From positions 1-23,822 of the IMG/VR virus record IMGVR_UViG_2671180283_000029: 23,822 bases of DNA. One strand, given 5' to 3'. Positions 1,192-16,148 of this stretch are shown here, piece by piece. Source of the DNA: a virus. Its lineage: Duplodnaviria > Heunggongvirae > Uroviricota > Caudoviricetes. The notes under the pieces were generated by a model, which had not been told where the DNA came from, did no database searches, and saw only the letters and a list, made by a program, of their open reading frames with translations. The number at the start of each line of letters is the position of its first letter. Position 1 is the first letter of the stretch. Position numbers and translations under genes: made by a program.

Positions 1192-1268
1192 TGACGCTCG
1201 TTATTTTATGGACAGCTTTAGGTTTATTATGTGGTTGCCTGATTGCTAACGCAGCTAACAGAAATTGA
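1191..1268 (+). CDS. possible small hydrophobic peptide (25 aa, MTLVILWTALGLLCGCLIANAANRN)
   Basis: ATG at 1191 overlaps the last base of the upstream TAA stop; strongly hydrophobic; below the ORF-track size cutoff; could be spurious. Confidence 0.25.
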   Translation: MTLVILWTALGLLCGCLIANAANRN

Positions 1269-1292
1269 TGTTATCAGATTGTTAAAAAGCTG

Positions 1293-1321
1293 TTGACAAA
1301 TAACCTTAAGCATGACATAAT
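1293..1321 (+). promoter_or_regulatory. near-consensus sigma70-type promoter
   Basis: TTGACA at 1293-1298, 17-nt spacer, CATAAT at 1316-1321, reading rightward into a ~380-nt non-coding leader. Confidence 0.5.
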
Positions 1322-1490
1322 TTTAATTATAGGGAAGAGCAATTCTTCCTAAAATCATATTTTCAATAATCCGATGGATGGATATTCTGAGTTGGAAAGG
1401 TGCAATGCTTTTCGTCATGGCCTTTCAGTTTAGTCTGAGAGGCTATCTCAAAAAGTCTTTGTTCATTCGTTATTGAATCCTTACAGCTTT

Positions 1491-1520
1491 GCCCTAATCA
1501 TGAGTTAGGGCGTTTTCTTT
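1491..1520 (+). terminator. intrinsic terminator-like hairpin in leader
   Basis: GCCCTAA / TTAGGGC 7-bp stem, 7-nt loop, followed by GTTTTCTTT. Confidence 0.4.
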
Positions 1521-1581
1521 AAGAGTTTTAAGCAGAGCTTTTAAAGAAAGTTTTTCCTGAAACTTCGTTAACGTAACCTCC

Positions 1582-1617
1582 AAAGCCCTTCACAGATTAT
1601 GTTTAGGGCTTTTCTTA
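1582..1617 (+). terminator. second hairpin with T-rich tail in leader (terminator or attenuator)
   Basis: AAAGCCCT / AGGGCTTT 8-bp stem with 15-nt loop followed by TCTT; weaker than the first hairpin. Confidence 0.3.
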
Positions 1618-1711
1618 ATAGAGCATCTTTAATCAATCGTTAAGTCATCTTCTAAGTGTATTGGCGTTGAAGGTGCTCTATTAAGAAATAACCACTTAGA
1701 GGAAAATTATA

Positions 1712-2422
1712 ATGACAAACGATTTATATATTAACGGCAGAAAGATTGATAGCTTCGGGGACTGGTCACCACAGACTGAACATCCAGCTATCGCTATTCA
1801 GCGTAAAGAACACGATGAAAGAATTAAGCTTGAGCAAGAAATCCGAATGTCACCAAAGGAAATTACCTTTGTGGCTCCTGAGCCTCAAGAAATGCCTGAT
1901 ATCTGCAAAAGTGAAGCACTATTTAATCTTGAGCGTGAATATTACCCACAGTTAAAAGAACAGCGCCTTAGACTAGATGACGCTTACAGCAAAGTTACCC
2001 TGATGCAATCAGCTATTGAGCCGTCAGAATTTGAGATTCAGGATGAATTGTCACAGAAACCATTTGTCTATTACCAATACGAAGACAATGATGGTTTTGG
2101 TATTTATCCAGAAAACATCCCAGCCGCGATTAGTAGTCTTCCTGAGGGACATCGAATTGTGAAGATGGTTAAGGCATCAAGAGGTGCTGGTCAGTTTATT
2201 TACATGACCAATAAGAGCGATGAAGAACTCTGTGAACTTGCCAGGCAGAACATCTTGGCATCACGTAACAAGCAACTTGAAAATGTTAAGTTGTGTCTCT
2301 TAAGAGAGCTTCAGGCTATGAAAGACCTTATTTCTGCATATGAAACGCAGAAGAAGATTGCTATGCAGGCTGATATTGAGCAGTTAGTGAAGATTTCAAC
2401 GAAGTACGCAAAGGTGCTTTAA
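1712..2422 (+). CDS. hypothetical protein (236 aa), acidic with a coiled-coil-like C-terminus
   Basis: ORF with GAGGAAA SD upstream of the ATG; no recognisable motif. Confidence 0.55.
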   Translation: MTNDLYINGRKIDSFGDWSPQTEHPAIAIQRKEHDERIKLEQEIRMSPKEITFVAPEPQEMPDICKSEALFNLEREYYPQLKEQRLRLDDAYSKVTLMQSAIEPSEFEIQDELSQKPFVYYQYEDNDGFGIYPENIPAAISSLPEGHRIVKMVKASRGAGQFIYMTNKSDEELCELARQNILASRNKQLENVKLCLLRELQAMKDLISAYETQKKIAMQADIEQLVKISTKYAKVL

Positions 2423-2445
2423 CTATGAATTAAAAGAGGTGATTA

Positions 2446-2655
2446 ATGTTTGAAGAACGTTTAGAGACTATTCGGTCTGTTTGTGAAAACTTAAAGTTAC
2501 AAGCCAATCCAGCCTTAAGAATTAAAAACAAACGTCAAGTTATCACCTCACACAAACCAAAAACACGCAAGATTCCAAAGTGGTGTATCGACCGTATCCC
2601 TTCTGATGCCCAAATCATAGGTGAAACGGAATTACATTATCTTGTCAGACATTAA
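2446..2655 (+). CDS. hypothetical basic protein (69 aa)
   Basis: ORF with AGAGGTG SD 4 nt upstream of the ATG. Confidence 0.4.
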   Translation: MFEERLETIRSVCENLKLQANPALRIKNKRQVITSHKPKTRKIPKWCIDRIPSDAQIIGETELHYLVRH

Positions 2656-2733
2656 AAAAGAATTGGTTGGGTAAAAATCTACGGGAGAGATTATCGAGTG
2701 ACATCGGTAGTTTCTCCCTTTTTTGTATATGTG

Positions 2734-2797
2734 CTACGTGAAATCTGTAAAGCTAATACCCACACTGAATAATAGAATTTACGTAGCTCACGCTTAA
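2734..2797. repeat. conserved 64-bp intergenic element, copy A (CTACGTGAA-N11-TAATACCCACAC-N15-ACGTAGCTCACGCTTAA)
   Basis: Three conserved blocks with identical 11- and 15-nt spacings, matched by copy B at 4979-5042; lies directly upstream of the 2816 gene. Confidence 0.6.
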
Positions 2798-2815
2798 AGA
2801 GGTGAAATATGAACA

Positions 2816-4966
2816 ATGGCACAGTTTAAAGTTGATGATTTTCTGATTGAGTTAAGTTTTAACTCTCAGAAAGTTTTAAAAGGCTTGGAAAAAGCCGAGA
2901 AACAAACGATGCAAATCGCATCAAGAATTGAGAAACGACTAAATAAGGCATTCAGAGTTAACCCTACGCCTTTAAATGATTCTCTCAAACTAATGGAAAA
3001 GAATGTCGATAAAACTGTTTCCAAGATTGAGCAGCGTCTTAAAAACACTAGAGCGTTTAAGATTAAAACGGAAATTGATGACACTTTAAAGCCACTTAGA
3101 CAACCAAGACAGCCACGAATTAGCGGCAACAGAGCAATCACAGCGGCTTACTCAGCTAATATGTCTAAGCTAAAAGGCTTTGACCCTATTTTGCAGAAAT
3201 ACATCAAATCTCAGTTTTACGGGCTATCTGCTAAAGCTGGGTCAATGGATTCTTCAAAATTCAATGAGAAGCTGACTCAGTTAAATGCTTCAGTCAGAGA
3301 AGCAATTGCTAAAGCTAAAGGTCATACATCCACCAGCATTAACAATACAAGCGACGCATTTAATAATCTTGCAAGCAATGCAATCAAGTTATCTGGTGCA
3401 TTTTACTCTGTGATGGGTGCTCTTAACGCTTACAAGGCCATCATGAATGCAGGTCTTAAACGAGATTCCGCACAGAGAGCCGCTAAGTTTGTACTTGGTG
3501 ATAAAGCATCTGAGGCTGAAACATTTATCAGGGGACTGGCTGACAAGACAGGTCTTAATATCTCTGAAGGGCTATCAAGCTACGCTAAGTTTGCAGCAGG
3601 TGCTCAGGGTTCTATGTCACAGGAACAGACACAGGAGCTATTTGGTAATGCAACGGCTATGAGTCGCTTAATGGGGCTTTCTAACGATGAGCTAAACGGC
3701 ATTTTGAAAGCATTTGAGCAGATGGCTTCTAAGGGCAAGATTCAGGCTGAAGAGCTTCGTGGGCAGTTAGGTGACCGTATGGCAGGGGCATTTAAGCTAT
3801 TCGCTGAAGCATTGGGTATGACTGCTACAGAGCTTGATAAAGCGATGAAAGACGGGAAGATTTTAAGTAGTGATACTCTCCCTAAAGTCGCTAAACAGAT
3901 GGGCTTGATGATTGATAAAGCGGGTGGCTGGGCTGAAGTCGCTAAGAGCACTCAGACAGCTTTAGGGAAACTGGCTAACAACTGGGATGATACGATGGTG
4001 AAAATCTTCTCAGGTTCACAGGATGAGTTAAACGGCTTCTTATCCAGCATGAGTAGCTTGCTTAGTGAAATGGGTATGAGTTCTTCTATCGCTGGTGATG
4101 CTATCGGTGGACTTATCGACATGCTTAAAGCTGGTGTAGATGACATCCGTATCTTTAACAATCACCTTGAAGGCTGGATTCTACAGATTAAGAAGACCTA
4201 TTACAGCCTTGATGACACTAAACGAAAACTACTTGATGAAGTCGGTGATGGTTTTATCAATTTTGTCAAAGGTCTTGCTATAGCGTTATCTGCAAAGACG
4301 CTATTCAGTGCTACTACAGGGGTTATGAACCTGACAAGAGCAATCACAACGTTAGGTACAAGAGCTAATCAGGTGGCTGGTCAGGTAGCTACTGGTAAAG
4401 GTGTAGCTGGTGGTGTAGGTAGTGCTCTTGCAATTGGTTATGCTGATGACGGTTATGAAACAGCGTTAGCATTAGCTTCAATGATTCCACAAATCAGAGG
4501 CGTCACTCTTGGTTTATATGCATTGAAGAAAGCACTGGATTTTATGAATCAGGAAGTAGTCAAAAACGCTAATATGCATCCATCTGGGGTAGGTGTGGGT
4601 AGTGACTTTAATCCTGTGTATTCTGGTGACCCTAATAAACCGAATATGATTAACGAAGGATGGGGTAGAATTTTTAGTTCAATGGGTGAATTGTTTAACA
4701 ATGCCACAATGAATATTGCAAGATTCAATCATCCAGAATTAATTACCATGAAACAAGATGCATCATTAACGAGCACTGACATCCAAAATCTAAGAGATGA
4801 AATTAGTGCTTTAAGTAAGCGTATTCAGGAGCCTGTGAAAGTTTCACTTGGTGGTGAAGTTGCCATTAAACCAGATGAAACCAGCTTTATGACCTTTAGC
4901 AGTAATATCTACGACCAATATGCAGAAGCTACGTTATTAAGTTCATCATTCCCAGAAGATGATTGA
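2816..4966 (+). CDS. phage tail tape-measure-like protein (716 aa)
   Basis: Motif GKIQAEELRGQLGDRMAGAFKLFAEALGMTATELDKAMKDGKILSSDTLPKVAKQMG resembles the conserved tape-measure domain; helical N-terminus and Gly/Ala-rich hydrophobic segments (about residues 480-560), typical of TMPs. Confidence 0.7.
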   Translation: MAQFKVDDFLIELSFNSQKVLKGLEKAEKQTMQIASRIEKRLNKAFRVNPTPLNDSLKLMEKNVDKTVSKIEQRLKNTRAFKIKTEIDDTLKPLRQPRQPRISGNRAITAAYSANMSKLKGFDPILQKYIKSQFYGLSAKAGSMDSSKFNEKLTQLNASVREAIAKAKGHTSTSINNTSDAFNNLASNAIKLSGAFYSVMGALNAYKAIMNAGLKRDSAQRAAKFVLGDKASEAETFIRGLADKTGLNISEGLSSYAKFAAGAQGSMSQEQTQELFGNATAMSRLMGLSNDELNGILKAFEQMASKGKIQAEELRGQLGDRMAGAFKLFAEALGMTATELDKAMKDGKILSSDTLPKVAKQMGLMIDKAGGWAEVAKSTQTALGKLANNWDDTMVKIFSGSQDELNGFLSSMSSLLSEMGMSSSIAGDAIGGLIDMLKAGVDDIRIFNNHLEGWILQIKKTYYSLDDTKRKLLDEVGDGFINFVKGLAIALSAKTLFSATTGVMNLTRAITTLGTRANQVAGQVATGKGVAGGVGSALAIGYADDGYETALALASMIPQIRGVTLGLYALKKALDFMNQEVVKNANMHPSGVGVGSDFNPVYSGDPNKPNMINEGWGRIFSSMGELFNNATMNIARFNHPELITMKQDASLTSTDIQNLRDEISALSKRIQEPVKVSLGGEVAIKPDETSFMTFSSNIYDQYAEATLLSSSFPEDD

Positions 4967-4978
4967 TTTAACGGTGTT

Positions 4979-5042
4979 CTACGTGAATAAAGCAAAGTTA
5001 ATACCCACACCAAAAATTATTTTTCACGTAGCTCACGCTTAA
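4979..5042. repeat. conserved 64-bp intergenic element, copy B
   Basis: Same three blocks and same spacings as copy A; lies between the TMP-like gene stop and the 5123 gene. Confidence 0.6.
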
Positions 5043-5122
5043 CAGAGAAAATACATACATATCAAAGGTTTGGTTAAAAATGATTAAAATACACTAAGCC
5101 TTTGAAATCAAAGGAGAATTTA

Positions 5123-5911
5123 ATGATTTACTCTAATCAGATTCGTTACAGTGGCAAAGATGGCATCTATTTCCACTTAAGAGATAATGTAGATGCCTTC
5201 TTAACCTTATCAGCAACTGAGAACATGGAATTTGATAGCCCTATGCAGGTGACTACACAGAATATGCAATCGGGGCAAACCGTCACAGATAATGTGCAAA
5301 GAGCACCCAGAACAATCACTATTAGTGGTGTCGTTGTAGTTGGCTATGAAGGGAGCTTATTATTAACTCGTCAGGGTCAATTAGTAGAAAACTTCATCGA
5401 CACTCTGGAAAACTGGCGTGACCAGAAGCAAATTATTTCGGTCATCTGTAAAGATGGAATTAAAATTGATGATTCCATTATTACGAGTTTTAAAGCCTCT
5501 AAAGATGTTGGAATTTCAAATGGTCTAAGAATCCAGCTAACTTTTCAGGAAATTAACTTTAAAGCGATTGTAGGACAAACTGATATTTCAGCAGCAACTG
5601 GAAAGACCGCTACTACAAATGACGGTGGTGTGACCAGTAAGAAGAATGCAGGTAACGTGACCACTGAACGCAATAACGCGCCTATGCTATCGTGCAAAGA
5701 ATTAATGAATATTAGCGATGTATCCGGTTACGCTCCAGCTATCAGAAATGATATTCTCGATGCTCAGATTAAATGTAATAAGGCTTGGAAGCTGGACTAT
5801 TCAGACTTAACAGAAGCTGAAAAAACCAACGTCACCAATGCTAACAGTAACGCTGGTCGGGTAGCTTCAAAGCTTAAAAAGTACTCAGTGAATCCTAACA
5901 AAAAATACTAA
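5123..5911 (+). CDS. hypothetical protein (262 aa); position after the TMP-like gene suggests a tail-associated role, unproven
   Basis: ATG at 5123 with AAGGAG SD (track start at 5102 lacks an SD); Thr/Asn/Gly-rich C-terminal half; 3' end overlaps the convergent recombinase gene by 4 nt. Confidence 0.5.
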
Positions 5912-7431
5912 ATCTCTACTACATCAACATCTATTAAACCCCTCTCAGTGACTTCAGAAAGCGACTGTATAGCCTCTGTAACGTCCTCTGAGGGGTTTTC
6001 TGTTATTGATAGGGTGATTGACTTACTATTGTGAAAAGTCACTTTACAGCGACGTTTAGCAGTATTTAAAACGACCTCTTTAACAGCACTTTTGATTATC
6101 AGTTGTGCTTCAATCCTTCCCGCCTTTGTAGTCAAGTCACAATCGGACAAACAACCCACATCAATAGATTTAAGGCGTTGTGTCTCCTTCTCGATATCAG
6201 CATCAACCTGTGATAGCTCACCTTTTAACTGTTTTAGTTTGCTGGTAATAGCTGACAAATCTTCAATTTCAAGTGATAGCTGTACCAGCTTTTCAATATT
6301 GCTTGAGATGTGTTCACGGTGTAGCCTCAACATATCTATGGTATTCGTCGTATCGCTATCAAATCGGTCAAGACGAGATAGCAGAGTAAGCAATGTACCA
6401 TCGGTTTGCTTACGTGAAAGTCCTTTAGCACTACAACGGTTTTCATTACGAAGAGGACAACGATAAATCCCGCTTCTTGTATCGCTAAAGCCTGTGATAA
6501 TCAGAGCATGACCACATTCAGAACAACGGATAACACCTTTGAAAAGATTCACAGCCATTGGCTTATCTGAAGCAGGTTTTCTACCGTAACGAGCATATGA
6601 TAGTTGCTGGACTTTGTAGAATGTTGTTTCATCTATAATTGCAGGATAATAATCAGCTATCTCTTCACAGCCTTTAGGTGTGAAGTAACCAATTACAGAG
6701 CGATTTTTCAGAAGGTCTTGTACTGAGGTTTGACCAAATGAACCCGCTTTATATTGGTTAAGCGTCTGGTGACCTTCATCATTAAGAGTCCTGACAATCT
6801 CCCAGATAGACTTACCCTCTAACCGTAGCTGAAAGCACCTCTTCACAGTTTCTACCTTCTCAGGTATCACAGAGAAGCTTTTACGGTCATCATTAAGCTT
6901 AAGCCATGCAGGACAACGTTTAGAAATCTTGATACCTTCAGAGATGAGTTCTTTTTTACGGTTCCATGCAGCTTGTATACGCTCAGACTTCCTCAAACTC
7001 TCCTCATGCGACCGCTGCATTATCAGAATGCTTTTAATCAGAGCTAACGGGTCTTTAAGAGATTCTCGTGTGTAATGTTCACCATCGGACAAGGTGACTA
7101 CATCTACACCAGAGCGAAGAATGTTTCGTAATAGCTCACTTGCTCGGTCTACGTTCTGGCGTGACAAACGGTCAAGAGATTCTATCAAGAGCGTATCACC
7201 AGCTTTAACAAGCCCTTTCTCGATAGCGGTTAAGAAGTCACCTAAGCCACCTTTCAAGTGCTTACCAGTGAATCCACTCACACCTAAATCACGGAAGGAT
7301 AAATCTTGGTCAAGGTAGTACTCAGGATGAGCCTTAAGCCAATCAGTGACCATCTTAGATTGTCGGCGTAATGAATCACCTCGGGATTGCTTCTCAGATG
7401 AAAACCTGATGTAAGAAATGGCACGTTTCAT
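5908..7431 (-). CDS. large serine recombinase (serine integrase), 507 aa
   Basis: N-terminal resolvase-type catalytic domain (YIRFSSEKQ with candidate nucleophilic Ser, [11 protein letters not shown]), then recombinase domain, Cys-rich zinc-ribbon-like segment (CSECGH...[11 protein letters not shown]) and C-terminal coiled coil; GAGGTG SD; sits at the element edge next to the junction. Confidence 0.9.
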
Positions 7432-7483
7432 TGTTCACCTCAAAACTGATGCCTAGATTGTATCGCTTTAGGTGGTGTATTTA

Positions 7484-7921
7484 AACGTGTCTAATAAAAA
7501 TCACCCGATTAACGCCGCGCTGATGTAAACCGCGATTAAGCGTTTGTTCCTCTTCCCCTTTGGCGAAAAACTGTGGATGGCGGACTTCCACACCATAATT
7601 AAATTCGCCAGGGAGAGAATCGAGAAAATGCCAAAGCGCAGGCAGCTCCCGTGGGCCGAATGTGGCAGGCAGTTGCAGCCAGTATTGCCCAATGCGCGGA
7701 GCCAACGGTGACATGCGGGTCAAAAATTCAGTCACTAAATCATCGCAATGTCGTAATGCTGCCTGATGCGAAATGGTCGCCGGAAACTTAAAACAGAAGC
7801 GGAAGTCATCTGTGGTCTGTTCACGCCAGCGCAGGACAACCTCGGGTTTCGGCAGGGCGTAAAGCGTGGTGTTGCCCTCCACGCAGTTAACATGACGGGT
7901 ATTAAGGATTAACTTACTGAT
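7484..7921 (-). pseudogene. yecE: internal fragment of a chromosomal DUF72-family gene (yecE-like), truncated at both ends
   Basis: Reading frame open from 7921 to 7484 with no credible start (track start is GTG); the protein matches my recollection of E. coli YecE across its central ~130 residues, with the C-terminal tail (IFIRHV) diverging near 7500 and the 5' end running into the integrase 3' end; GC visibly higher than the left element. Identity is from memory, not a search. Confidence 0.55.
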
Positions 7922-9222
7922 TTTAATAAGCCTCTGGTGTCACTTTGGTGACTATGGGGCATCATTGGGACATAATCTGTCAGCTTCTGATTCAGCATTG
8001 CGATCTGTTCTGCATTGCTGTCAGTCATCCATGCTCCGTATACATTGAATACCATCTGGGCACTTGCATGGCCCATCTGGCTGGCAATGAAGCTTGGGTT
8101 TGCTCCGGCAGATAATGACCAGCACGCATAAGTGTGTCGTGACTGGTATGCCTTTCGATGCCTGATCCCTGCACGCTTAATGGCTGTTTCCCATGAGTCA
8201 CCTACAGAATCGACTTTGTAGACAAAACCTACCTGTTCGCTTTTTCTAACCACTTGAGGGTTAAACACGAAAGTACATTCATGGTTCACTGAACGTCCAT
8301 ATTCACGTAGTTGCACCTTGATGTTGTACTGCTTACCCAGTCTTGTCATTTCAGCCTGATTTTTCAGGACACTGATAGCGGGCTGGATAAGGTGCACAAC
8401 CCTGTTTGTGCTTGCTTCAGTTTTCGGTAGAGTGAACTCACCAAGTTTCGTATAATTGCGCCTGATGGTAATTGTTCCTGCCTTCAGATCGATATCTTCC
8501 CAGGCCAGGGAGACCAGTTCACCGTGACGCATTCCTGTGTACACAGCCAATGACCACAGGTTTTTCGTCTGCTGATGTCGGCAAGCATCTATCAGGCGAA
8601 TAAATTCGTCACGAGTTAGCGGATCTGGCTCTGCCCTGGCTCTTTTAAGAGGCTTAATTCCCTGGAAGGGATTTGCTTCTAAGTAACCGTGATCTGCAGC
8701 AAACTGAAACATTCCAGCGATTGTCGTCATGTAATAATTTACAGTAACGACGCTCCGTCCTTTTGCTGCTGCTTTGTTTTTCGTTGAATTCTGATACCCG
8801 GTCAGCAAATCTTTCCTGATATACAGCAATTCCTCTTTGGTTACCGATGACACCAGTCTACTGCCTCCAATTTTCGGAACCATCGTTCTTGCAACGGATT
8901 CATAGCGATTGAATGCATTTGCAGAGATTTCCATTCGTTTCAGATCCAGCCACTTTTCTTCAAGTTTCTTCACCGTAATTTCTTTTTTACTTACCCCAAA
9001 AGCCTGAAGGTTGGGGGAGTCAGGGAACTGTGCAGCATAATCAAAGCTTCCTGTGCGGATGGCAAAACATACTGATGTCCGCAGTTCCCCGGCGATCTTC
9101 CTGTTCTTGGCAGTGTCAGGGACACCAAGATTTTCCCTGACACGTTTACCTTTAAAATTAAACCAGATGCGTAATGTGCCGCCGTGGTTTTCGACGCCTG
9201 TTGGATATTTGACTTTATCCAT
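7909..9222 (-). CDS. int: phage tyrosine integrase (437 aa)
   Basis: C-terminal catalytic region with Arg/His/Tyr pattern (GMRHGELVSL, SRHTYACW, MGHAS, VYGAW); GGAGG SD; adjacent to the chromosomal gene remnant and followed by an excisionase-like gene. Confidence 0.9.
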   Translation of the reverse strand: MDKVKYPTGVENHGGTLRIWFNFKGKRVRENLGVPDTAKNRKIAGELRTSVCFAIRTGSFDYAAQFPDSPNLQAFGVSKKEITVKKLEEKWLDLKRMEISANAFNRYESVARTMVPKIGGSRLVSSVTKEELLYIRKDLLTGYQNSTKNKAAAKGRSVVTVNYYMTTIAGMFQFAADHGYLEANPFQGIKPLKRARAEPDPLTRDEFIRLIDACRHQQTKNLWSLAVYTGMRHGELVSLAWEDIDLKAGTITIRRNYTKLGEFTLPKTEASTNRVVHLIQPAISVLKNQAEMTRLGKQYNIKVQLREYGRSVNHECTFVFNPQVVRKSEQVGFVYKVDSVGDSWETAIKRAGIRHRKAYQSRHTYACWSLSAGANPSFIASQMGHASAQMVFNVYGAWMTDSNAEQIAMLNQKLTDYVPMMPHSHQSDTRGLLKSVS

Positions 9223-9277
9223 CGATACCTCCAGACGCCCAAGAGCGATACGAGCTTACATATTTCATGATATTAAA

Positions 9278-9514
9278 TCACCTGGGTTGTTTGTTTTTCA
9301 TTGAGGCGACCCAGGCATCTATTGCTTTTCTGTTATACATACATTCACTGGAAGGCTTTGGATTACCGTCTGGTGATACGTGAATATACTCTCTTCCAAC
9401 CATCCAGCATTCTTTCCGGGCCCGAAGAATTGTGCCTGGTTTGAGCCCGGTAATTGCGATAAGAACGCTTTCACAAACCCATTCATTGGGAGTCAGTTGA
9501 ATCACATTGCCCAT
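9278..9514 (-). CDS. xis: excisionase-like protein (78 aa)
   Basis: Small protein immediately upstream of int on the same strand; WMVGREYIHV resembles the lambda Xis winged-helix region (DGREYLFH). Confidence 0.6.
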   Translation of the reverse strand: MGNVIQLTPNEWVCESVLIAITGLKPGTILRARKECWMVGREYIHVSPDGNPKPSSECMYNRKAIDAWVASMKNKQPR

Positions 9515-9522
9515 GCATTACC

Positions 9523-9669
9523 TCACACAACACTCAGCCCACGGCAGTGGTACCACACTTCAAACATTCGTTTCACAATTTCACGACAGTAGAAGACGTC
9601 AACATCTCGCGTCAGGTCATAGCGATTGCCGTAACGCTGGCGCACCCATAGCTCAAACGCTTTATTCAT
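9523..9669 (-). CDS. small hypothetical protein (48 aa, MNKAFELWVRQRYGNRYDLTRDVDVFYCREIVKRMFEVWYHCRGLSVV)
   Basis: ATG at 9669 with AAGGAAG SD; fills the gap between xis and the next gene; below the track size cutoff. Confidence 0.35.
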   Translation of the reverse strand: MNKAFELWVRQRYGNRYDLTRDVDVFYCREIVKRMFEVWYHCRGLSVV

Positions 9670-9672
9670 TCT

Positions 9673-9915
9673 TTACTTCCTTTTCATGGCCCGTAATTTT
9701 TTCAGATGAGCTTCCTGCTCTGTTTCTGCCAGAATTTGTCGGTATTCCTGGTGATCAATCCGTTCAAACAGTTCATTGAAATCGTTTATTTTTACTGACT
9801 GTGTTCGCCCATCCATTCTTCTGTACAACACAGTGTTGTTTATGCAGCGAACAATTTTTACCGGGTAACCGGCATTGTCGGTATACAGTTGTCCCTGATT
9901 AATCAAAGCGAACAT
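9673..9915 (-). CDS. hypothetical phage protein (80 aa)
   Basis: Internal ATG at 9915 preceded by AGGAG SD; the track's longer 121-aa version would overlap the upstream gene. Confidence 0.5.
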   Translation of the reverse strand: MFALINQGQLYTDNAGYPVKIVRCINNTVLYRRMDGRTQSVKINDFNELFERIDHQEYRQILAETEQEAHLKKLRAMKRK

Positions 9916-9946
9916 TTTTTCTCCTGCTCTCTGAATAGTGAGAACT

Positions 9947-10318
9947 TCAGAGCCGTATGTTTGTAGCGGGTTCAATACTGATAATTTCTGCTGAGATAAG
10001 CATCCCGGCAAGCCAGAGCTCTCCGGACAGATCTTCATCCTGGCATGTCAGTTCGCCAATATTAATGGTGGCCATGATATCTGTTTCCCCTGTACGCTCA
10101 TCCTCGACTTCTTCATAAGGCAGCGTTGCGTACAGGCTTTCAATAGCGCAACTGATAACATCGAGTCCGGTCAGGTTGCCACCGACAGTGACTTCGAATG
10201 TTTCGCGGTATTCCCATTGCCCGAAAGTTAATCGAACGGTTTGTTTCGCCATGCGTCCGCATGACGTCAGATTTGGGTCATAGTTCATTATTTGCGGTTG
10301 AGTATTATGAGTGTTCAT
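9947..10318 (-). CDS. hypothetical phage protein (123 aa), acidic
   Basis: ORF in the leftward early operon; no recognisable motif. Confidence 0.5.
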   Translation of the reverse strand: MNTHNTQPQIMNYDPNLTSCGRMAKQTVRLTFGQWEYRETFEVTVGGNLTGLDVISCAIESLYATLPYEEVEDERTGETDIMATINIGELTCQDEDLSGELWLAGMLISAEIISIEPATNIRL

Positions 10319-10359
10319 CTGCTTTTCCCTTAGCCCGACGGCCTGCCGGGCATATTAAG

Positions 10360-11187
10360 TTATTTAACCTGGATAAATGGTGTATTGGCACCGCTGGTCA
10401 TGTATTGCGGCAGCGTGCCATTCCATTTATTGATGGCTTCCAGCTCCATAACACCGGGGTTCTGACGCAGAGCTTCACCGCGTAAACGAATAGCATCGGC
10501 TTCAGCCTGGGCTTTTGTGCGAATCGCATCAGCCTGTCCGGCAGCTTCCGCGCGCAACATGTTGGCTTCCGCTTCGCGCTGTTTTACTTCCTGCTCGCGT
10601 TGCAGAGTTTTCTGGTTCGCCGTGACTTTGGCATTAATGCTGTCGATAACAGTAGGCGGGTACTCCGGCTTACCCACATATGAGAGGCTTATTACCTGAA
10701 TACCGATGGGCGTCATTTCTTCCTGAATGTCTTTAAGAGCTGCATCCAGCAGCTCAGACTTGCCGCCGTCGATAAATTTGTCGGTGGTCATTTTGCTGGC
10801 CAGTCGGTTGAGTGCGTCGGCTATCTTCTGGCGCAGGTCGGTGTCGGTAATGTCGTCCACGCCTTTGCGGTAGGTCTGAAAGACTGTGGTAACTTTGGAT
10901 GGATCAACCTTGTAGGCTACTCCGATGTGGTAACCAATGGTTGTTCCATCGCTCATCTGGAAACTGAATGGATCATCGTAGGTCTTCATCTGCTTAAAGG
11001 TCGGGAAGATATAAACTTCAGTGTTCCAGCCTGTCCAGTAGCGACCAACACCGACCACTTCACCGACGCCTTTGTCGTCGCCAAGTTTGTTGACTTTGAT
11101 GCCCACATTACCAGGCTCAACACGATCACAACCGACAAGGCCAATGGCAGGCAGAACAATGGCTAAAGAAAAAATAATTTTTTTCAT
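10360..11187 (-). CDS. SPFH/band-7 (prohibitin/stomatin-like) domain lipoprotein, 275 aa
   Basis: Signal peptide with lipobox LVGC (MKKIIFSLAIVLPAIGLVGC); band-7-like core; C-terminal Ala/Glu/Arg/Gln-rich coiled coil typical of SPFH oligomerisation tails; AAGGA SD; ATGA overlap with the upstream small gene. Confidence 0.75.
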   Translation of the reverse strand: MKKIIFSLAIVLPAIGLVGCDRVEPGNVGIKVNKLGDDKGVGEVVGVGRYWTGWNTEVYIFPTFKQMKTYDDPFSFQMSDGTTIGYHIGVAYKVDPSKVTTVFQTYRKGVDDITDTDLRQKIADALNRLASKMTTDKFIDGGKSELLDAALKDIQEEMTPIGIQVISLSYVGKPEYPPTVIDSINAKVTANQKTLQREQEVKQREAEANMLRAEAAGQADAIRTKAQAEADAIRLRGEALRQNPGVMELEAINKWNGTLPQYMTSGANTPFIQVK

Positions 11188-11372
11188 CTTTTATCCTTAG
11201 TGAAAGAAAGCCCCTTATAAATGGTATAAATGCATGGCGGGGTTAGAAACGTCAGTGCAAAGCCAGAAATCACCGCTACCGTATCCTTCATTGATATCAG
11301 AAACGGGACGAGCAATCCGTAAATACATGCGATAATTGCCAGTGATATAACTATTCTGAAATAAATATTCAT
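11184..11372 (-). CDS. small membrane protein (62 aa, two predicted TM helices) coupled to the SPFH lipoprotein
   Basis: Two hydrophobic stretches (IVISLAIIACIYGLLVPFLI and AVISGFALTFLTPPCIYTI); AGGAGG SD; its stop overlaps the lipoprotein ATG. Confidence 0.55.
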   Translation of the reverse strand: MNIYFRIVISLAIIACIYGLLVPFLISMKDTVAVISGFALTFLTPPCIYTIYKGLSFTKDKR

Positions 11373-11432
11373 GGTCCTCCTGCTGTATTCGGCTTGCCTT
11401 ATTTAATTGCGTCATGGTTAATTTCGTTTACG

Positions 11433-11825
11433 TCAGAATGGTTTTGTTGCCATCAGTTCGTAATATCCGGCGCTCCATGTGTCATATTTTCTGAACCATT
11501 TTTCTGTATACTGTTTCCTGGCGATGAGTCTGCGCAGTCGTCTGATTGTTCGCTGGTGTGCGCGGGTGTACTCTGTGGTTGATTCTCCACGTTTCCATAT
11601 CTCATTCCCGTTGAAGATAAAACGCTTGTCAGGATGGCGTTGTCGGAATCCTGAACGTTCAAAAGCGCGGGTGGTCATAAAGAATGCCAGGTAACGAATT
11701 GCCGTTTTTCGAGTGAGGCATTTTTTTGTTCTTCCGTGGCGTGTTACAAAAAATAACGGGCCGACGGGTGTATCATGTTTCTGTAATGCCTGGTCAATGG
11801 CGCTGGCGGTGCGGTTGTCGATCAT
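11433..11825 (-). CDS. hypothetical basic protein (130 aa)
   Basis: ORF in the coupled leftward operon; Arg/Lys-rich; start overlaps the upstream gene stop. Confidence 0.5.
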   Translation of the reverse strand: MIDNRTASAIDQALQKHDTPVGPLFFVTRHGRTKKCLTRKTAIRYLAFFMTTRAFERSGFRQRHPDKRFIFNGNEIWKRGESTTEYTRAHQRTIRRLRRLIARKQYTEKWFRKYDTWSAGYYELMATKPF

Positions 11826-12040
11826 TTCTTTATTTCTCCTGAATAACGTTCATGACTCATTACTTCCCAGTTCCGGCCGTCGTCTTTCGATAACAGCCGC
11901 CAGCGACGGTTAACCTTCAGACTGAGACATCCGTTGCGCTGTATCCGATGCGGGAATATACGTCGGCATCTGTACCGCCGCAGGACCAGCAACGCCTGCT
12001 GGTGGACCCACTCAGGAATTCGCGTTGCTGTTAATGTCAC
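11822..12040 (-). CDS. hypothetical protein (72 aa)
   Basis: GTG start at 12040 with AGGAGG SD 6 nt upstream; ATGA-type junction with the downstream gene. Confidence 0.4.
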   Translation of the reverse strand: MTLTATRIPEWVHQQALLVLRRYRCRRIFPHRIQRNGCLSLKVNRRWRLLSKDDGRNWEVMSHERYSGEIKK

Positions 12041-12227
12041 TGGTTTCCTCCTGAGCAGGTGCTGTTATCTGATACCCCGCTCTTTCTGCCAGCCATATGA
12101 ATGTATCCATGCTGGCAATCAGCTCTCCATCGCGGACTTTGCAGACATCTGTTACCTGGCCATTTTCAATTGTCATAACGATCTGCACTTTTTCGTGCAC
12201 AACAGATACAGGGGATAAATTAGCCAT
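12012..12227 (-). CDS. hypothetical protein (71 aa)
   Basis: ATG at 12227 with GGAGG SD; overlaps the stop of the upstream gene. Confidence 0.45.
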   Translation of the reverse strand: MANLSPVSVVHEKVQIVMTIENGQVTDVCKVRDGELIASMDTFIWLAERAGYQITAPAQEETSDINSNANS

Positions 12228-12586
12228 CAGTTAATTCCTCCGCTGATATATTTTTCTTTCGCGTAATCAATAACCTCTTGTAAAAGGTTGTCTATAATTA
12301 ACTTTCCGGTTTCAGCCTGGTATTCAGTATGTTGATTAATCCCGATGGCATTCTGGTATGCAGTTCGGAATTCTGTTTCACCCTCCACTCGACCCAATTC
12401 ACCACGGGTAATATCTTCAAAGCGCAACAGCAACTGGTTTATAAACTGTTCTGTTATTTCTATGGTCGTAATGTTCCCATTCAGAAGGTCAACAATAAGC
12501 AGTTCACCACCTGTTTTACGTTTTATTCGATGGAGTTCTGCAACAGCTATACGGCGACGATATGTATTAATGGATTCATGTGTCAT
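12227..12586 (-). CDS. hypothetical protein (119 aa)
   Basis: ORF in the coupled leftward operon. Confidence 0.5.
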   Translation of the reverse strand: MTHESINTYRRRIAVAELHRIKRKTGGELLIVDLLNGNITTIEITEQFINQLLLRFEDITRGELGRVEGETEFRTAYQNAIGINQHTEYQAETGKLIIDNLLQEVIDYAKEKYISGGIN

Positions 12587-12589
12587 TTG

Positions 12590-12703
12590 TTATTTCCCGT
12601 ATGCTTTACGCAGAAATAAGCAGGCAATATGCATGTAATTTTCACCGTATTGTGCAATAAGACAGGCGGTCTTGTGTGATGCCATATTCTTTATAAAAGT
12701 CAT
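12590..12703 (-). CDS. small hypothetical protein (37 aa, MTFIKNMASHKTACLIAQYGENYMHIACLFLRKAYGK)
   Basis: ATG at 12703 with perfect AGGAGG SD 7 nt upstream; ends 4 nt before the next gene's start; below the track cutoff. Confidence 0.3.
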   Translation of the reverse strand: MTFIKNMASHKTACLIAQYGENYMHIACLFLRKAYGK

Positions 12704-12781
12704 AATAAAGCCTCCTGTGGATTAAGATTGTAACAATCCCCGGCGATAAAACCGCAATAAACCTTCAGGGCATATTTGTTG

Positions 12782-13147
12782 TTATTGCGCTAATTCTTTT
12801 TCGGCAGCAGCTTTTGCATACTCACATGCAAAATTCAGAATTTCGCTGCCGAGTGTTTTCGTTTCGTGATTACTGGACATATGTAATACCTGTGTTGCAT
12901 GCAATAAATGATAAACATTTACCGCAAATGAATCAGGCTCCAGACAAATGCCTTCGTAATTATCTTGCTGTGAGGTTGTTTCTGTCATTGCTTCTGAAGT
13001 GCATGCGAGCCTGTTTTTGACAATTCTCTTTCCTCTAATCACTATATCGGCAACATCTATTGCCTTTACAACCTCCGGGAGAAGTTCCGGGTTTGTATAA
13101 TCAAAGTCATCAACATGGAGAACAGTTATGTTTTCGAACTTTTTCAT
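12782..13147 (-). CDS. hypothetical protein (121 aa); first gene of the leftward early operon (lambda N map position, not N-like)
   Basis: ORF preceded by a divergent intergenic region (13148-13326) containing inverted repeats; not arginine-rich like N. Confidence 0.5.
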   Translation of the reverse strand: MKKFENITVLHVDDFDYTNPELLPEVVKAIDVADIVIRGKRIVKNRLACTSEAMTETTSQQDNYEGICLEPDSFAVNVYHLLHATQVLHMSSNHETKTLGSEILNFACEYAKAAAEKELAQ

Positions 13148-13326
13148 GGCTTCCTCAGCTGACTTATATGTCCTGCTATATAGCGAGTCTCAGAAGTGTT
13201 TTCATATTGAGACTGTTTCCGCAATGATTGATAATCAGTTACCGGATGCTTATCCGTGTCCGGCGCACGACCACACGTAGCCGCGTGTTGGTCCCCATTT
13301 TCAATTCAGCTCTCAATGGAGGATAA

Positions 13327-13554
13327 ATGATTAACGCAGAGCAACTCGAAAAAGAGATTTCAGAACTCAAAAAAGAATTAATTTGGCACAAAGTTGCTAT
13401 CTCCGCATTAATTCGTCAGGTAGTTTCACCTGAAGATAAAGTAAAGTTTATGAAGCAGCTCTCATCTTCATCAAAGGAGTTTTTCACTGACGAGGTTCAT
13501 CCAGAGGCTGGATTTTGGATCCGTCAATTATTTTCGCAAGATAAGCGTAAATAG
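13327..13554 (+). CDS. hypothetical small coiled-coil protein (75 aa)
   Basis: ATG with GGAGG SD 5 nt upstream; converges on and overlaps the 3' end of the minus-strand 80-aa gene by 71 nt. Confidence 0.45.
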   Translation: MINAEQLEKEISELKKELIWHKVAISALIRQVVSPEDKVKFMKQLSSSSKEFFTDEVHPEAGFWIRQLFSQDKRK

Positions 13555-13726
13555 CGTCATCAATACTCGCGTCGCTCTTGAATTTAAGAGCGATGCTCTT
13601 TATATCCTCTGAAATTATTACCAGATCACCATATGTTATATTTTTATTATTGCGCGCAGTGCTTTTTTGTATGAAATCAAGCAATTCACCAATGAGACAA
13701 ATATGGTAAGCATTACAGTTTTTCAT
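13484..13726 (-). CDS. hypothetical protein (80 aa), gene B of the cI-adjacent module
   Basis: ATG at 13726 overlaps the TGA of the upstream HTH gene (ATGA junction); the track's longer version starts further upstream in the other gene. Confidence 0.5.
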   Translation of the reverse strand: MKNCNAYHICLIGELLDFIQKSTARNNKNITYGDLVIISEDIKSIALKFKSDASIDDAIYAYLAKIIDGSKIQPLDEPRQ

Positions 13727-14184
13727 GCGCAGATATCCTTTGCTGCCGTTTCGCCAGTTAACAGCCACATCGCATCGCAGCCAAGAATATTTGCCAGTGG
13801 GATAAGCATACTGATAGTTGGTTCATACTCTCCGCTCTCCCACTGGATGATAATTTCTTCATCGAGATCGAGCAGCCTGGCGAGTTCGGCGGTTGTTAAG
13901 CCGCAGGCTTCGCGTTGGGTGCGAAGGTTAACCAGCCAGCTTTCAGGGAAGGATTGTTTTTGTTGCGCAGGAGAAGCAGCAGATAGAGCATATTCATGGA
14001 TAAATTCCATTATCTCAATGCCCAGTTCCTTTGAGCGAGCACAATCCAGAAGATGGAATGTGCGTACAGCACTTAGCAAATTTGCAATATTTAATGCAAA
14101 GGAATCAAGTTCTAAGCCCTTAAGCGTAACACAGCCGCAGTTGATAAAATTAGTTGTTTCTGGAGTTGCTTTTAGTGTCTTCAT
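13723..14184 (-). CDS. XRE-family HTH protein with an unknown N-terminal domain (153 aa), gene A of the cI-adjacent module
   Basis: C-terminal LRTQREACGLTTAELARLLDLDEEIIIQWESGEYEPTISMLIPLANILGCDAMWLL is a classic XRE helix-turn-helix; ATG at 14184 with GGCGGA SD (track start at 14214 is TTG); N-terminal ~85 aa unrecognised. Confidence 0.6.
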   Translation of the reverse strand: MKTLKATPETTNFINCGCVTLKGLELDSFALNIANLLSAVRTFHLLDCARSKELGIEIMEFIHEYALSAASPAQQKQSFPESWLVNLRTQREACGLTTAELARLLDLDEEIIIQWESGEYEPTISMLIPLANILGCDAMWLLTGETAAKDICA

Positions 14185-14237
14185 ATATCCGCCAACAATT
14201 TTAAATTGAATCAAATCAAGTTATAATTGATGGTGCG

Positions 14238-14266
14238 ATATTATGTTTTGGGAAATAGCCTGTCAA
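14238..14266 (-). promoter_or_regulatory. near-consensus sigma70-type promoter for the gene A-B module
   Basis: On the minus strand TTGACA (rc of 14261-14266), 17-nt spacer, TAATAT (rc of 14238-14243); lies between the cI terminator and gene A. Confidence 0.45.
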
Positions 14267-14294
14267 GAAAAAATTGATATCGTATATTTCAGGC

Positions 14295-14318
14295 AGAAAA
14301 AAAACGGGCAAAGCCCGT
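14295..14318 (-). terminator. intrinsic terminator downstream of cI
   Basis: On the minus strand ACGGGC-TTT-GCCCGT stem-loop followed by T8. Confidence 0.55.
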
Positions 14319-14330
14319 TAAAATCAAAGA

Positions 14331-15026
14331 CTAACCAAATCTGTTTATGTTGAATGGTACTGATGAGATCACTTTAGACTGGATATAAAGCAGAGCTAAC
14401 CCCTCTTTTTCGATGCTCCATGGTTGATAATTGGGGTTATCAGATAACACCATGATTTTGCTTCCAATTTTTTGAAGCCTTTTCACGTAGCATTCTCCAT
14501 CAAAACAAAATGCATAAATACCATCGCCATCAAAATAAGTTACTGTCTTATCAAGAAAAAGAAGGTCGCCAGGTGAGATTGTGGGAGCCATACTGTCTCC
14601 TCTGGCGTTACCTATTTCTATATTTTTGAATGCCCGATTCCCAACAAGACGTCGGGCATATTCAGGATCAAGTTCTATTGAGCGCACTACATCTATCAAG
14701 TCACCACGGACATGAGTTCCATCACCGCAACTAAACTCAACATCAAGGACATTAAACACGACACTATCTGTTCTTGTCTGGTGTTTCTCTTGCGAGGAAA
14801 AGGTTGGTGAGGAGTCTTCACCTAAGAACCAGGATTGTGGATAACCGCTAATCTCTGATAAATGCGCGAGCTTATCACTCCGTGGAAATGTTTTTCCTGT
14901 TGTCCAGTACTGCACTGATTGCGCACTCACACCTAACTTGCGGGCCAGTTGAGCCTGAGTCCATCCTTTTGCTTTCAGCATCGCGGCTATTCGATTTTCC
15001 GTGTTTTTGACGTTCTTCATGACCAA
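14331..15026 (-). CDS. cI: CI-type prophage repressor (HTH_XRE plus S24 LexA-like peptidase), 231 aa
   Basis: N-terminal HTH (KGWTQAQLARKLGVSAQSVQYWTTGKTFP); C-terminal S24 signature with GDSM serine and VKRL lysine; divergent from the cro-like gene. Confidence 0.85.
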   Translation of the reverse strand: MVMKNVKNTENRIAAMLKAKGWTQAQLARKLGVSAQSVQYWTTGKTFPRSDKLAHLSEISGYPQSWFLGEDSSPTFSSQEKHQTRTDSVVFNVLDVEFSCGDGTHVRGDLIDVVRSIELDPEYARRLVGNRAFKNIEIGNARGDSMAPTISPGDLLFLDKTVTYFDGDGIYAFCFDGECYVKRLQKIGSKIMVLSDNPNYQPWSIEKEGLALLYIQSKVISSVPFNINRFG

Positions 15027-15153
15027 ATCCTGTGGGTTTCTTTACAAGGATAAATCTTTACTTGATTTTAGTGTATTCGATCCTTTTGCAACTTGCATGT
15101 TAATTTAAACTTGATGTATTCTTGATTTATAAAGTTAATATTGGTGCTTTGTT
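15027..15153. promoter_or_regulatory. cI/cro divergent promoter-operator region (pRM/pR equivalent)
   Basis: 127-bp AT-rich spacer between divergent cI and cro-like genes containing three copies of a CTTGAT-containing motif; exact operators not resolved. Confidence 0.45.
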
Positions 15154-15444
15154 ATGGAAGGAAATGATTACGACAAACTTCGTGCATTAATTGCGCAAAA
15201 TGCCATAGCGCGAAATCTTGGTGTGACGCCGCAAGCGGTGAATCAGTGGTTTTCAAAAAGCACAATTCCTGCTCGTTTCGTTTTACGAGTATGTGAAGTA
15301 GTTGCATGGAAGGTTACACCTCATGGCTTAAGGCCAGATCTTTATCCTCACCCTGAAGATGGAATTCCTAACTTGTTACGCAAAAGCCTAAATCCAAGTT
15401 CACCACACAGAGCGGATGGAATACACGCAGGAGATAAACAATGA
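15154..15444 (+). CDS. Cro-like (YdaS-type) HTH regulator, 96 aa
   Basis: Position divergent from cI; HTH-like segment ARNLGVTPQAVNQWFSKSTIP; stop overlaps the next ATG (ATGA). Confidence 0.55.
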   Translation: MEGNDYDKLRALIAQNAIARNLGVTPQAVNQWFSKSTIPARFVLRVCEVVAWKVTPHGLRPDLYPHPEDGIPNLLRKSLNPSSPHRADGIHAGDKQ

Positions 15445-16148
15445 ACACCGCAATTTTTAACGGCAAAGCATCCATGACCAGCGTTGAGATCGCAGAGCTG
15501 GTGGGAAGCCGACCAGATAGTGTTAAGAGAACTATTGAAACACTGGCTAAAAAGGGAATCATCCAATTTCCACAGACTGTGGAAATTGAGAATAAACAAT
15601 CACTTGGGCCTCGCCGATTTTCTAGCGCGTATGTATTCGAAGGTGAACGAGGTAAGCGCGACAGCATCATTGTCGTCGCACAGCTCTGTCCTGAATTCAC
15701 TGCTCGCCTGGTAGATCGCTGGCGCGAACTGGAAGAACAGATCCGTAAGCCAATGAGCGAAATCGAAATGGTTGCCGCGATGGCTCTTGAAGCAGTTCGT
15801 CAGCAGAAACGGATCACTCAGGTGGAAGAAAAAGTCAGCCACGTTGCTGAAACAGTCGAGCAAATTAAAAAGGGCACTATTCGTGAGGGCTATGCCGGAT
15901 ATCGCCAACTGAAAGCAAAAACCGGTTTGTCAGATGATAAATGCCGCAATCTGGTGAACGCCTATCAGATTCCTACAGACACCCATGAGTTCATGACGCC
16001 GGACGGATTGTTGTCACGTCGCGCAATTGTTGCTGTGGAACCGTTTATGGCTGCTTTTTATCGGGTTATGGAGGAAGCAGAACCGCGAGGGACTCGCTGG
16101 TATCACCCGAAAATGGGGTTATTTCAGGTTATTGGTTGGCAGCGGTGA
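15441..16148 (+). CDS. Rha-family phage regulatory protein (235 aa), in the cII map position
   Basis: N-terminal SVEIAELVGSRPDSVKRTIETL and later YVFEGERGKRDSIIVVAQLCPEFTARLVDRWRELE fit the pattern I recall for the Phage_pRha domain; translationally coupled to cro. Confidence 0.5.
   Translation: MNTAIFNGKASMTSVEIAELVGSRPDSVKRTIETLAKKGIIQFPQTVEIENKQSLGPRRFSSAYVFEGERGKRDSIIVVAQLCPEFTARLVDRWRELEEQIRKPMSEIEMVAAMALEAVRQQKRITQVEEKVSHVAETVEQIKKGTIREGYAGYRQLKAKTGLSDDKCRNLVNAYQIPTDTHEFMTPDGLLSRRAIVAVEPFMAAFYRVMEEAEPRGTRWYHPKMGLFQVIGWQR

Follow-up and report, generated by a model that had tools for sequence, protein, structure and literature searches.

The DNA analyzed here is a 23,822-nucleotide stretch of a virus record (IMG/VR record IMGVR_UViG_2671180283_000029, positions 1 to 23,822), referred to below as the window. 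In it, an internal piece of the Escherichia coli gene yecE lies between two integrated elements, one with a large serine recombinase (LSR) on the left and a phiP27-type prophage with a tyrosine integrase on the right. We put the probability at about 94% that this piece of yecE was left behind passively when unrelated elements entered one gene in two independent site-specific insertions. The features at and between the two junctions are as follows.

5908 to 7431, minus strand: LSR, 507 amino acids (aa), intact, with matches to PF00239 (Resolvase), PF07508 (Recombinase), PF13408 (Zn_ribbon_recom) and the integrase family phrog_95.
7432 to 7496: terminal arm of the serine element, an attP-derived half site; its end, GTGTATTTAAACGTGTCTAATAAAAATCA, is conserved in 13 occupied sequences, and it contains a promoter-like site at 7485-7457 on the minus strand.
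7497 to 7503: 7-bp identity AAAATCA common to attB, attL, attR and attP; nucleotides (nt) 473-479 of yecE, codons 158-160.
7504 to 7879, minus strand: internal yecE remnant, undecayed; yecE nt 97-472, codons 33-158; 100% identical to natural alleles, with a protein sequence equal to that of K-12 YecE.
7880 to 7890: 11-bp core CACGCAGTTAA of the phiP27-type attachment (att) site; yecE nt 86-96; attL of phiP27 and the published core.
7891 to 7908: prophage arm from the core to the integrase stop codon, 18 bp, of which 7891-7902 mimics yecE at 8 of 12 bases.
7909 to 9222, minus strand: tyrosine integrase of the phiP27 type, 437 aa, identical to phiP27 L01 at 416 of 436 residues, with PF12167 (Arm-DNA-bind_2) and PF00589 (Phage_integrase).

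The remnant is real, undecayed yecE. Positions 7497 to 7890 of the window are nt 86-479 of the 819-nt gene, or 394 bp when both recombination cores are included, and 376 bp (7504 to 7879) separate the two cores. In a megablast search with 7432-7925, the yecE locus was matched in 5419 of the 5426 complete E. coli genomes, and 7497-7890 is 100% identical to some natural yecE alleles. Where the gene is intact, the match always starts at window position 7497 and ends at 7890, or at 7902 if four mismatches are allowed. The translated frame matches the DUF72 family (Pfam PF01904, E = 6.8e-35, profile positions 15 to 138 of 217), and its residues N30 to I159 are identical to those of K-12 YecE (272 aa). 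The flanking order yecN ... yecD is preserved in related genomes, which identifies the site as the native yecE locus. The frame on the minus strand is bounded above by a stop codon at 7942-7940 and is open from 7939 to the stop codon at 7481-7483. Positions 7891-7939 of this open frame are phage DNA, and the frame stays open into it because 7891-7902 of the phage arm resembles yecE. The first canonical start codon in the frame is GTG at 7882, and no ATG, GTG or TTG lies upstream of it. The remnant is without a start codon or native end, and no function of its own is known or expected.

These results agree in most respects with a preliminary description made from the letters of the window. Its assignment of the fragment to yecE/DUF72 is borne out by the Pfam match, the locus match across the complete genomes and the residue identity with K-12 YecE. 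It had described a frame open from 7921 to ~7500 with no start or native end; the openness, the absence of a canonical start before GTG 7882 and the end within element DNA are correct, but the limits are those given above. The length of ~430 bp stated there was too large, since the true yecE DNA is 394 bp. The divergence placed at ~7500, 70 bp from the start of the serine recombinase gene, is close to the breakpoint, which is exactly at 7497 and 65 bp from the start at 7431. The frame does run into the 3' end of the tyrosine integrase gene (stop codon at 7909-7911), and an att core does lie within the 5' part of yecE.

At the right edge, the core reads TTAACTGCGTG in the orientation of the gene and covers codons 29 to 32. 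When the window, K-12 yecE and both prophage ends of strain Z1323HEC0393 are aligned, TTAACTGCGTG is the sole block common to attB, attL and attR. The GenBank record of phiP27 (AJ298298) begins exactly at this core, with nt 1-11 annotated as attL and the integrase gene at 30-1343; the integrase in the window is 95% identical to phiP27 Int at the amino acid level and has both the arm-binding and the catalytic domain. In Z1323HEC0393 and FAM21845, a second copy of the core lies at the other prophage end, beside the yecE 5' piece and yecD. Delannoy et al. gave 5'-CAYGCAGTTAA-3' as the att site at yecE of phages carrying the Shiga toxin (Stx) type 2 genes (PMC5592225), Nakamura et al. defined a 21-bp att for the same site (PMC8112680), and Bobay et al. 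counted yecE among the core genes disrupted by prophages (PMC3603311). Positions 7880-23822 of the window align with phiP27 and several Stx2 phages at ~91% identity across ~65% of their length. On the prophage side this is a textbook situation, with yecE well documented as an Stx/phiP27 site.

Two further observations concern this prophage type in other strains. The O104:H4 strains of the 2011 outbreak and their relatives have an integrase of this type at yecE and lack the serine element, and they match the terminal 160 bp of the window's prophage, on its integrase side, at 100% identity. In strain 23CRST022 (NZ_AP045781.1), yecE is fused directly to the bet/gam region of a prophage that is without integrase and excisionase genes. 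Its break (at about window position 7848) was considered as a third att site in yecE and rejected, as it belongs to a prophage remnant without int and xis that was fused to the gene via a deletion.

At the left edge, the junction alignment places K-12 yecE (GGCTGTCTAAAATCACCCGATT) beside the window (GTGTCTAATAAAAATCACCCGATT) and the far junction of FAM21845 (GGCTGTCTAAAATCATCAAGGTC), with AAAATCA as the common block. Both junction sequences are the same in 13 of the 13 occupied sequences examined, which are the window and 12 loci. The attP predicted by joining the element ends is GTGTATTTAAACGTGTCTAAT-AAAA-ATCATCAAGGTCTAAATACAC. In its best dyad, 15 of 24 bases are complementary around a center at 7497|7498 in the shared block (other centers, <=9), a geometry that would be expected for an LSR site; from this pattern, the crossover dinucleotide is probably AA at 7497-7498. 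The LSR itself carries the N-terminal motif YIRFSSEKQ with the expected serine, and its gene starts at 7431, 65 bp from the breakpoint. A promoter scan located a promoter-like TTTAAA-17-TACAAT within this 65-bp terminal arm (7485-7457, minus strand). No intrinsic terminator was predicted between the co-oriented tyrosine integrase gene, remnant and LSR gene (7431-7909, minus strand), and read-through coupling of the two recombinase genes is conceivable but unsupported.

The nearest phage LSRs are those of the YbcK type from coliphages, at 36% identity, and the LSRs of elements at yecE are 90-94% identical to one another. The IMG/VR relatives of the LSR are all prophage calls from isolate genomes and are uninformative on encapsidation. 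The 12.7-kb fecal "Bacteriophage sp." MT836130.1 was rejected as a relative, its LSR being 30% identical and no other gene being held in common. A 548-bp contig labeled "Mycobacterium sp. NAZ190054" (NZ_LMVQ01000531.1) encodes the first 161 LSR residues at 93% identity and is almost certainly a contamination of that Mycobacterium assembly.

Genomes with neither, one or both of the two elements in yecE were all found.

Empty yecE: for example, K-12.
Tyrosine element only: Z1323HEC0393 (NZ_CP148357.1), 100.0% identical to window 7497-23822, with the remaining yecE contiguous.
Serine element only: DJH_183sputum; also GCA_001283885.1 and others, 99.9% identical to window 1-7902.
Both elements: FAM21845, TUM1881, JNEC-KY173 and others.

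With junction-specific queries, the serine junction was present in 280 and the tyrosine junction in 323 of the 5426 complete genomes, and both junctions, ~400 bp apart, were present in at least 10. Independent insertion would give 16.7 double occupants; at a plausible true count of 10 to 12, P(X<=12) is 0.14, and there is no significant sign of attraction or exclusion between the two insertions. The closed genome of FAM21845 has, in order, yecD, the yecE 5' piece (99 nt annotated), a prophage of ~45 kb, the middle piece, a 12-kb element, the yecE 3' piece (348 nt) and yecN, with all three yecE pieces collinear with the intact gene in order and orientation. The 348-nt 3' piece lies at the far end of the serine element in FAM21845, TUM1881, DJH_183sputum and four further loci. 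One of these, in the draft genome GCA_001283605.2 (CYDQ01000040.1), is 100.000% identical to window 1-17431 and contains the full 11,268-bp element followed by the yecE 3' piece. The double junction also occurs in five independent draft/Logan assemblies encoding an identical recombinase. Near-identical copies of each element are found in single-occupancy genomes, which indicates that each was gained or lost recently.

Several expectations of the preliminary description can be judged from these genomes. Two unrelated elements in one gene are indeed present, each occurring alone as well, at a distance of 376 bp between the cores rather than the ~400 bp suggested. The duplicated att cores were located at the far ends in related genomes (Z1323HEC0393 and FAM21845), and strains in every occupancy state exist. 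The two flanks are not one continuous element, as each is found alone with the rest of yecE intact, nor is the junction an assembly artifact, as the three-part arrangement recurs in at least 10 complete genomes and several draft/Logan assemblies. The statement that yecE is a documented site for Stx and lambdoid phages was accurate (PMC8112680, PMC5592225, PMC3603311). The left flank is a separate integrated element with a serine integrase, as had been proposed, but it is not an ordinary prophage, since its 11.3 kb contain no recognizable head, packaging or lysis genes.

The serine element was also found free of yecE. An exact scan for the predicted attP returned one metagenome contig, ERZ1090866 NODE_760 (11,473 bp, 6x coverage), with attP at 2939-2965. 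This contig is a full circular permutation of the element without yecE sequence. The two ends of the contig correspond to neighboring bases in the TUM1881 copy, the break lies in the iteron region described below, and the 3' end carries the Nextera adapter CTGTCTCTTATACACATCT. The precise empty serine site is present in K-12 and in the genomes with the tyrosine element alone. The same exact scan detected no predicted attP in IMG/VR or in the one-genome-per-species contigs, and therefore there is no evidence of packaging. Several other contigs of ~11.2 kb were rejected as circles of the yecE element: the Logan/ENA contig L041 begins and ends with 23 nt of yecE, which reflects a break of the assembly graph at a polymorphic site, and contigs L037 to L040 are sibling elements at other sites.

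We propose that the arrangement arose as follows. The phiP27-type prophage would have recombined at TTAACTGCGTG through its lambda-like tyrosine integrase, helped by the adjacent excisionase, and would fill everything to the right of 7890. The 11.3-kb element would have recombined within yecE nt 473-479 through its LSR and would fill everything to the left of 7497. The piece between them, on the minus strand, would be the yecE stretch that separated the two attB sites, with yecE itself being nonessential. Since the attB sites are short, lie 376 bp apart and are each wholly on their own side, neither insertion damages the site of the other, and the insertions could have taken place in either order. 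Each element could in principle excise alone and restore its part of yecE. The remnant is in this respect ordinary, largely known biology.

A few points weigh against this interpretation. The window holds neither far end (the serine attL and the prophage attR); they are deduced from GCA_001283605.2, which provides the left end only (100% over 17.4 kb), and from other genomes. Independence is not statistically proven, since double occupants were counted as a minimum and the genomes are not phylogenetically independent of one another. The circular form is one contig of 6x coverage ending in a Nextera adapter, and copies arrayed head to tail in tandem would produce this junction as well. The mobility of either element in this strain, including present competence for excision, is presumptive.

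The other features of the window, and one feature of the element to its left, are the following.

1 to 7496: right-hand 7.5 kb of the 11.27-kb LSR element, which continues for ~3.77 kb to the left of the window, where its far end abuts the yecE 3' piece.
1712 to 2422: conserved protein of 236 aa, encoded shortly upstream of the tail module, without a profile match.
2816 to 4966, plus strand: tape measure protein (TMP), 716 aa, Felixounavirus related (Pfam TMP_3, E = 2.8e-22; phrog_4036, E = 9.5e-90).
5102 to 5911, plus strand: tail tube initiator (Dit-like), 269 aa (PDB 9NDY_A, gp18 of the Felixounavirus Bas63, E = 2.2e-115).
18564 to 18681 of the extracted GCA_001283605.2 locus, left of the window: iterons and AT-rich run inside the gene for a 326-aa initiator-like protein.
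9278 to 9514, minus strand: excisionase, 78 aa ("excisionase family protein" in the 100%-identical Z1323HEC0393 prophage; Pfam DUF1233 on record).
9515 to 23822: early/regulatory region of a phiP27-like lambdoid prophage, which leaves the window, with an SPFH protein, repressors, Rha/Ash, replication genes, a helicase and Q (annotation from NZ_CP148357.1).

The complete serine element measures 11,268-11,270 bp in five loci identical or 99.9% identical to the window, and it is complete at 9933-21196 of the extracted GCA_001283605.2 locus. Complete copies are 11.3-12.0 kb long in at least 8 cases and 12.7 kb with an IS3 insertion. In the doubly occupied strain TUM1881, an IS3-family insertion (18044-20900 of the extracted locus) splits the LSR gene, which would lock that copy in place. 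Searches with Pfam, PHROGs, PADLOC and NCBIfam recognized an LSR, a Dam-type methylase, an O-like initiator, a TMP and a tube initiator only. The profile scans revealed no gene for capsid, portal, terminase, sheath, tube or lysis, about eight small open reading frames (ORFs) being uncharacterized, and PADLOC found no known defense system, the methylase being an orphan. The initiator-like protein (326-330 aa) has weak matches to phrog_270 (E = 3e-7) and to the O-like phrog_678 (E = 3.6e-6), with HTH_36 below threshold. Its gene contains four 23-bp iterons with a spacing of 22-23 bp and the palindromic core GTGACAAAATGTCAC, followed by an AT-rich run of 2.7 copies of TTATCTAATAAC. Iterons and an AT-rich stretch inside an initiator gene resemble the layout of the lambda ori and make this a candidate origin.

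The conserved 236-aa protein occurs as two alleles, ~24% identical, that hold the same position in different elements, and its homologues form 3059 clusters in E. coli and Salmonella. The label "transposase" that it carries at NCBI in many genomes is rejected, having no support from any profile library. PDB sequence searches with this protein and with a 69-aa protein were negative, and the AlphaFold2 model of the 236-aa protein is of low confidence (predicted local distance difference test score, 58.6) and consists mostly of long helices.

The tail module of the element is related to that of Felixounaviruses. The tube initiator shares 73% amino acid identity with ORF68 of FelixO1 (95.1% nucleotide identity over 510 bp), and the TMP is 32% identical to that of FelixO1. 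In FelixO1, ORF67 (TMP) is directly followed by ORF68 (tube initiator), the same order as in the element and in synteny with gp17/gp18 of Felixounaviruses. PDB 9NDY is the tube initiator gp18 of Bas63, in whose baseplate hub the TMP and the tube initiator contact each other (PMC12609058). At the nucleotide level, the TMP gene has only its 5' end and a central patch in common with FelixO1; the last 30 nt are also shared in some siblings and were not detected in the window copy. No other ORF of the element has a FelixO1 homologue, and a pairwise comparison with FelixO1 ORF65/66 detected no tail assembly chaperone. Among sibling elements, the LSRs are 90-94% identical, the tube initiators 62-78% and the TMPs only 40-58%, which points to a rapid turnover of the tail module. 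The 510 bp with 95.1% identity to FelixO1 (window 5147-5656) also match ~200 other Felixounavirus genomes, and divergence from these phages is much greater in the remainder of the tube initiator gene and in the neighboring TMP gene. At the level of the sequence, this pattern suggests recent recombination between the chromosomal element and lytic phages.

Elements of the same architecture occupy other sites. The ENA metagenome contigs L037 to L039 represent a sibling with a different LSR of 547 aa, inserted close to the 5' end of wrbA, a gene that is the classic integration site of Stx2 phages. Its junction (query L038 8180-8433) is present in 73 of the 5426 complete genomes. Contig L040 has a third LSR (506 aa) and another site, and AATGACCCTTGA is repeated at both of its ends.

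The serine element is not a conventional prophage. It matches what is seen in satellites in being small, with an integrase, without recognized capsid, terminase or lysis genes and with a size conserved across diverged copies, and in having structural genes (TMP and tube initiator) related to those of a possible helper, a Felixounavirus. This raises the possibility, which we hold tentatively and at somewhat less than even odds, that it represents an undescribed satellite family of E. coli and Salmonella that parasitizes or defends against virulent Felixounaviruses, analogous to the PLEs (elements resembling phage-inducible chromosomal islands) of Vibrio cholerae. Upon infection, such a satellite would be excised by the LSR and would then replicate from the O-like initiator and the iteron origin. 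Its own TMP and tube initiator would be substituted into the tails of the helper, or the assembly of helper tails would be poisoned. By analogy, we regard the element as a candidate PLE-like satellite or Felixounavirus-directed tail-interference element.

It is, on the other hand, unlikely that the left element is what remains of a decayed and now immobile prophage, derived by deletion from a serine-integrase myovirus and with its tail genes as leftovers. Two recognizable virion genes alone among many small unassigned ORFs, the damage in some copies (e.g., IS3 in the TUM1881 recombinase), and the absence of any copy from the phage genome collection and of attP from IMG/VR are what such decay would leave. 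The element has nevertheless kept its size of 11.3-12.0 kb and its gene order although the TMP genes are only 40-58% identical, most copies have an intact recombinase, and the gene for the O-like initiator holds four iterons and a stretch rich in AT. The precise excised circle and the siblings that combine different recombinases with the same architecture, in wrbA and at another site, also argue against decay, and no larger "parent" prophage was seen at the serine site of yecE.

In genomes with the tyrosine element alone, the Prokaryotic Genome Annotation Pipeline (PGAP) annotates a "complete" 256-aa DUF72 protein (WP_044713004.1) from an ATT start in phage DNA, equivalent to window 7925-7927. 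This coding sequence overlaps the 3' end of the integrase gene, and in its product the 29 first native residues are exchanged for 13 phage-encoded residues. It is probably an annotation artifact and not a functional fusion.

It is very improbable that the remnant has gained a role, either as a conduit for read-through into the LSR gene or as a truncated or N-terminally replaced YecE. A conduit would suit the co-orientation of integrase gene, remnant and LSR gene with no predicted terminator, but a promoter-like site for the LSR is already present in the 65-bp arm of the element. As for an altered YecE, the 256-aa coding sequence of tyrosine-only lysogens speaks for it, but its ATT start is a choice of annotation and not evidence of expression, and in the window no canonical start precedes GTG 7882, while after codon 159 of 272 the frame passes into element DNA and terminates there. 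The identity of the remnant to native alleles is as expected of recent insertions.

The chance is negligible that the flanks are one composite element which carries both recombinases and took up part of the interior of yecE: the remnant and the two recombinase genes do lie on the same strand with no predicted terminator between them, and the IMG/VR prophage calls join both regions into single viral contigs, but single-occupancy genomes refute this, with each half found alone, near-identical and with the complementary part of yecE intact, and each element has its own pair of att junctions, the serine element closing as an 11.5-kb circle. Equally remote is an assembly chimera or prophage-mediated rearrangement in place of site-specific integration, for which it could be said that no complete genome in the collection covers >77% of the window and that a genome matching the right part at 100% identity is without the left part; both breakpoints, however, fall exactly on cores used in hundreds of genomes, the double junction recurs in at least 10 closed genomes and five independent draft/Logan assemblies, one of them identical over 17.4 kb, and the yecE pieces keep the order and orientation of the intact gene.

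The remnant resulting from two independent insertions is biologically minor, and it shows that yecE holds two independent attB sites. The second attB and its 11-kb element appear to be undescribed; in the limited literature collection searched, no paper on an LSR element at yecE or on a Felixounavirus satellite was found. A disrupted yecE is not diagnostic of a phiP27/Stx-type prophage. In ~5% of complete E. coli genomes, yecE is split by the LSR element and would read as "occupied" in PCR or in silico insertion-site typing of Shiga toxin-producing E. coli, and the wrbA sibling (73 genomes) can confound Stx-phage insertion-site typing likewise. Taken together, the yecE element and the wrbA sibling are found in at least 6.5% of complete E. 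coli genomes. Phage therapy and typing make use of Felixounaviruses. If the element is a Felixounavirus satellite, E. coli would offer a tractable system comparable to that of PLE and ICP1 in Vibrio, tape measure and hub proteins encoded by a satellite would be known from a second case, and the element would bear on host-range failures of Felixounaviruses.

Among known systems, PLEs use an LSR and their own initiator, encode a TMP, a tail assembly chaperone and BhuB, and build chimeric tails that are based on components of ICP1, a virulent myovirus (PMC12987554). By gene content alone, the yecE element is like a PLE in being small, in having an LSR and its own putative initiator, in having no recognizable capsid, terminase or lysis genes, and in carrying a partial tail module (a TMP and a baseplate-hub-proximal protein) related to a virulent myovirus. 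It differs in that no tail assembly chaperone was detected, in that its initiator is lambda O-like with internal iterons whereas that of PLEs is of the RepA_N type, and in that its putative helper would be a Felixounavirus. Because no chaperone was found and the type of initiator differs, we do not file the element as a PLE; the resemblance is one of gene content.

The prophage side shares with the phiP27, Stx1 and Stx2 lambdoid phages at yecE the integrase family, the 11-bp core CAYGCAGTTAA and the int-xis-early layout. This likeness extends up to the point where the window stops, before the late region, and the 100%-identical prophage of Z1323HEC0393 is without an annotated stx gene.

In Bacillus subtilis, SPbeta in spsM and the skin element in sigK are LSR elements that reversibly split a host gene. 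The yecE element is like them in having the LSR gene at its very end, tens of bp from the crossover, in its insertion into a coding sequence with a few bp of identity, and in having a precise empty site and a circular form. It differs in its host, E. coli, in its size of 11 kb and in its phage tail genes, and there is no evidence for developmentally programmed excision or for an importance of the restored yecE.

Finally, as in the tandem and nested prophages at ompW/PPompW (Nakamura et al. 2021, PMC8112680), several elements are found at one locus and a yecE-type att is involved. In contrast to ompW/PPompW, the two elements at yecE use two attB sites in one gene and two recombinase families, and they are neither nested nor dependent on the reuse of an att site.

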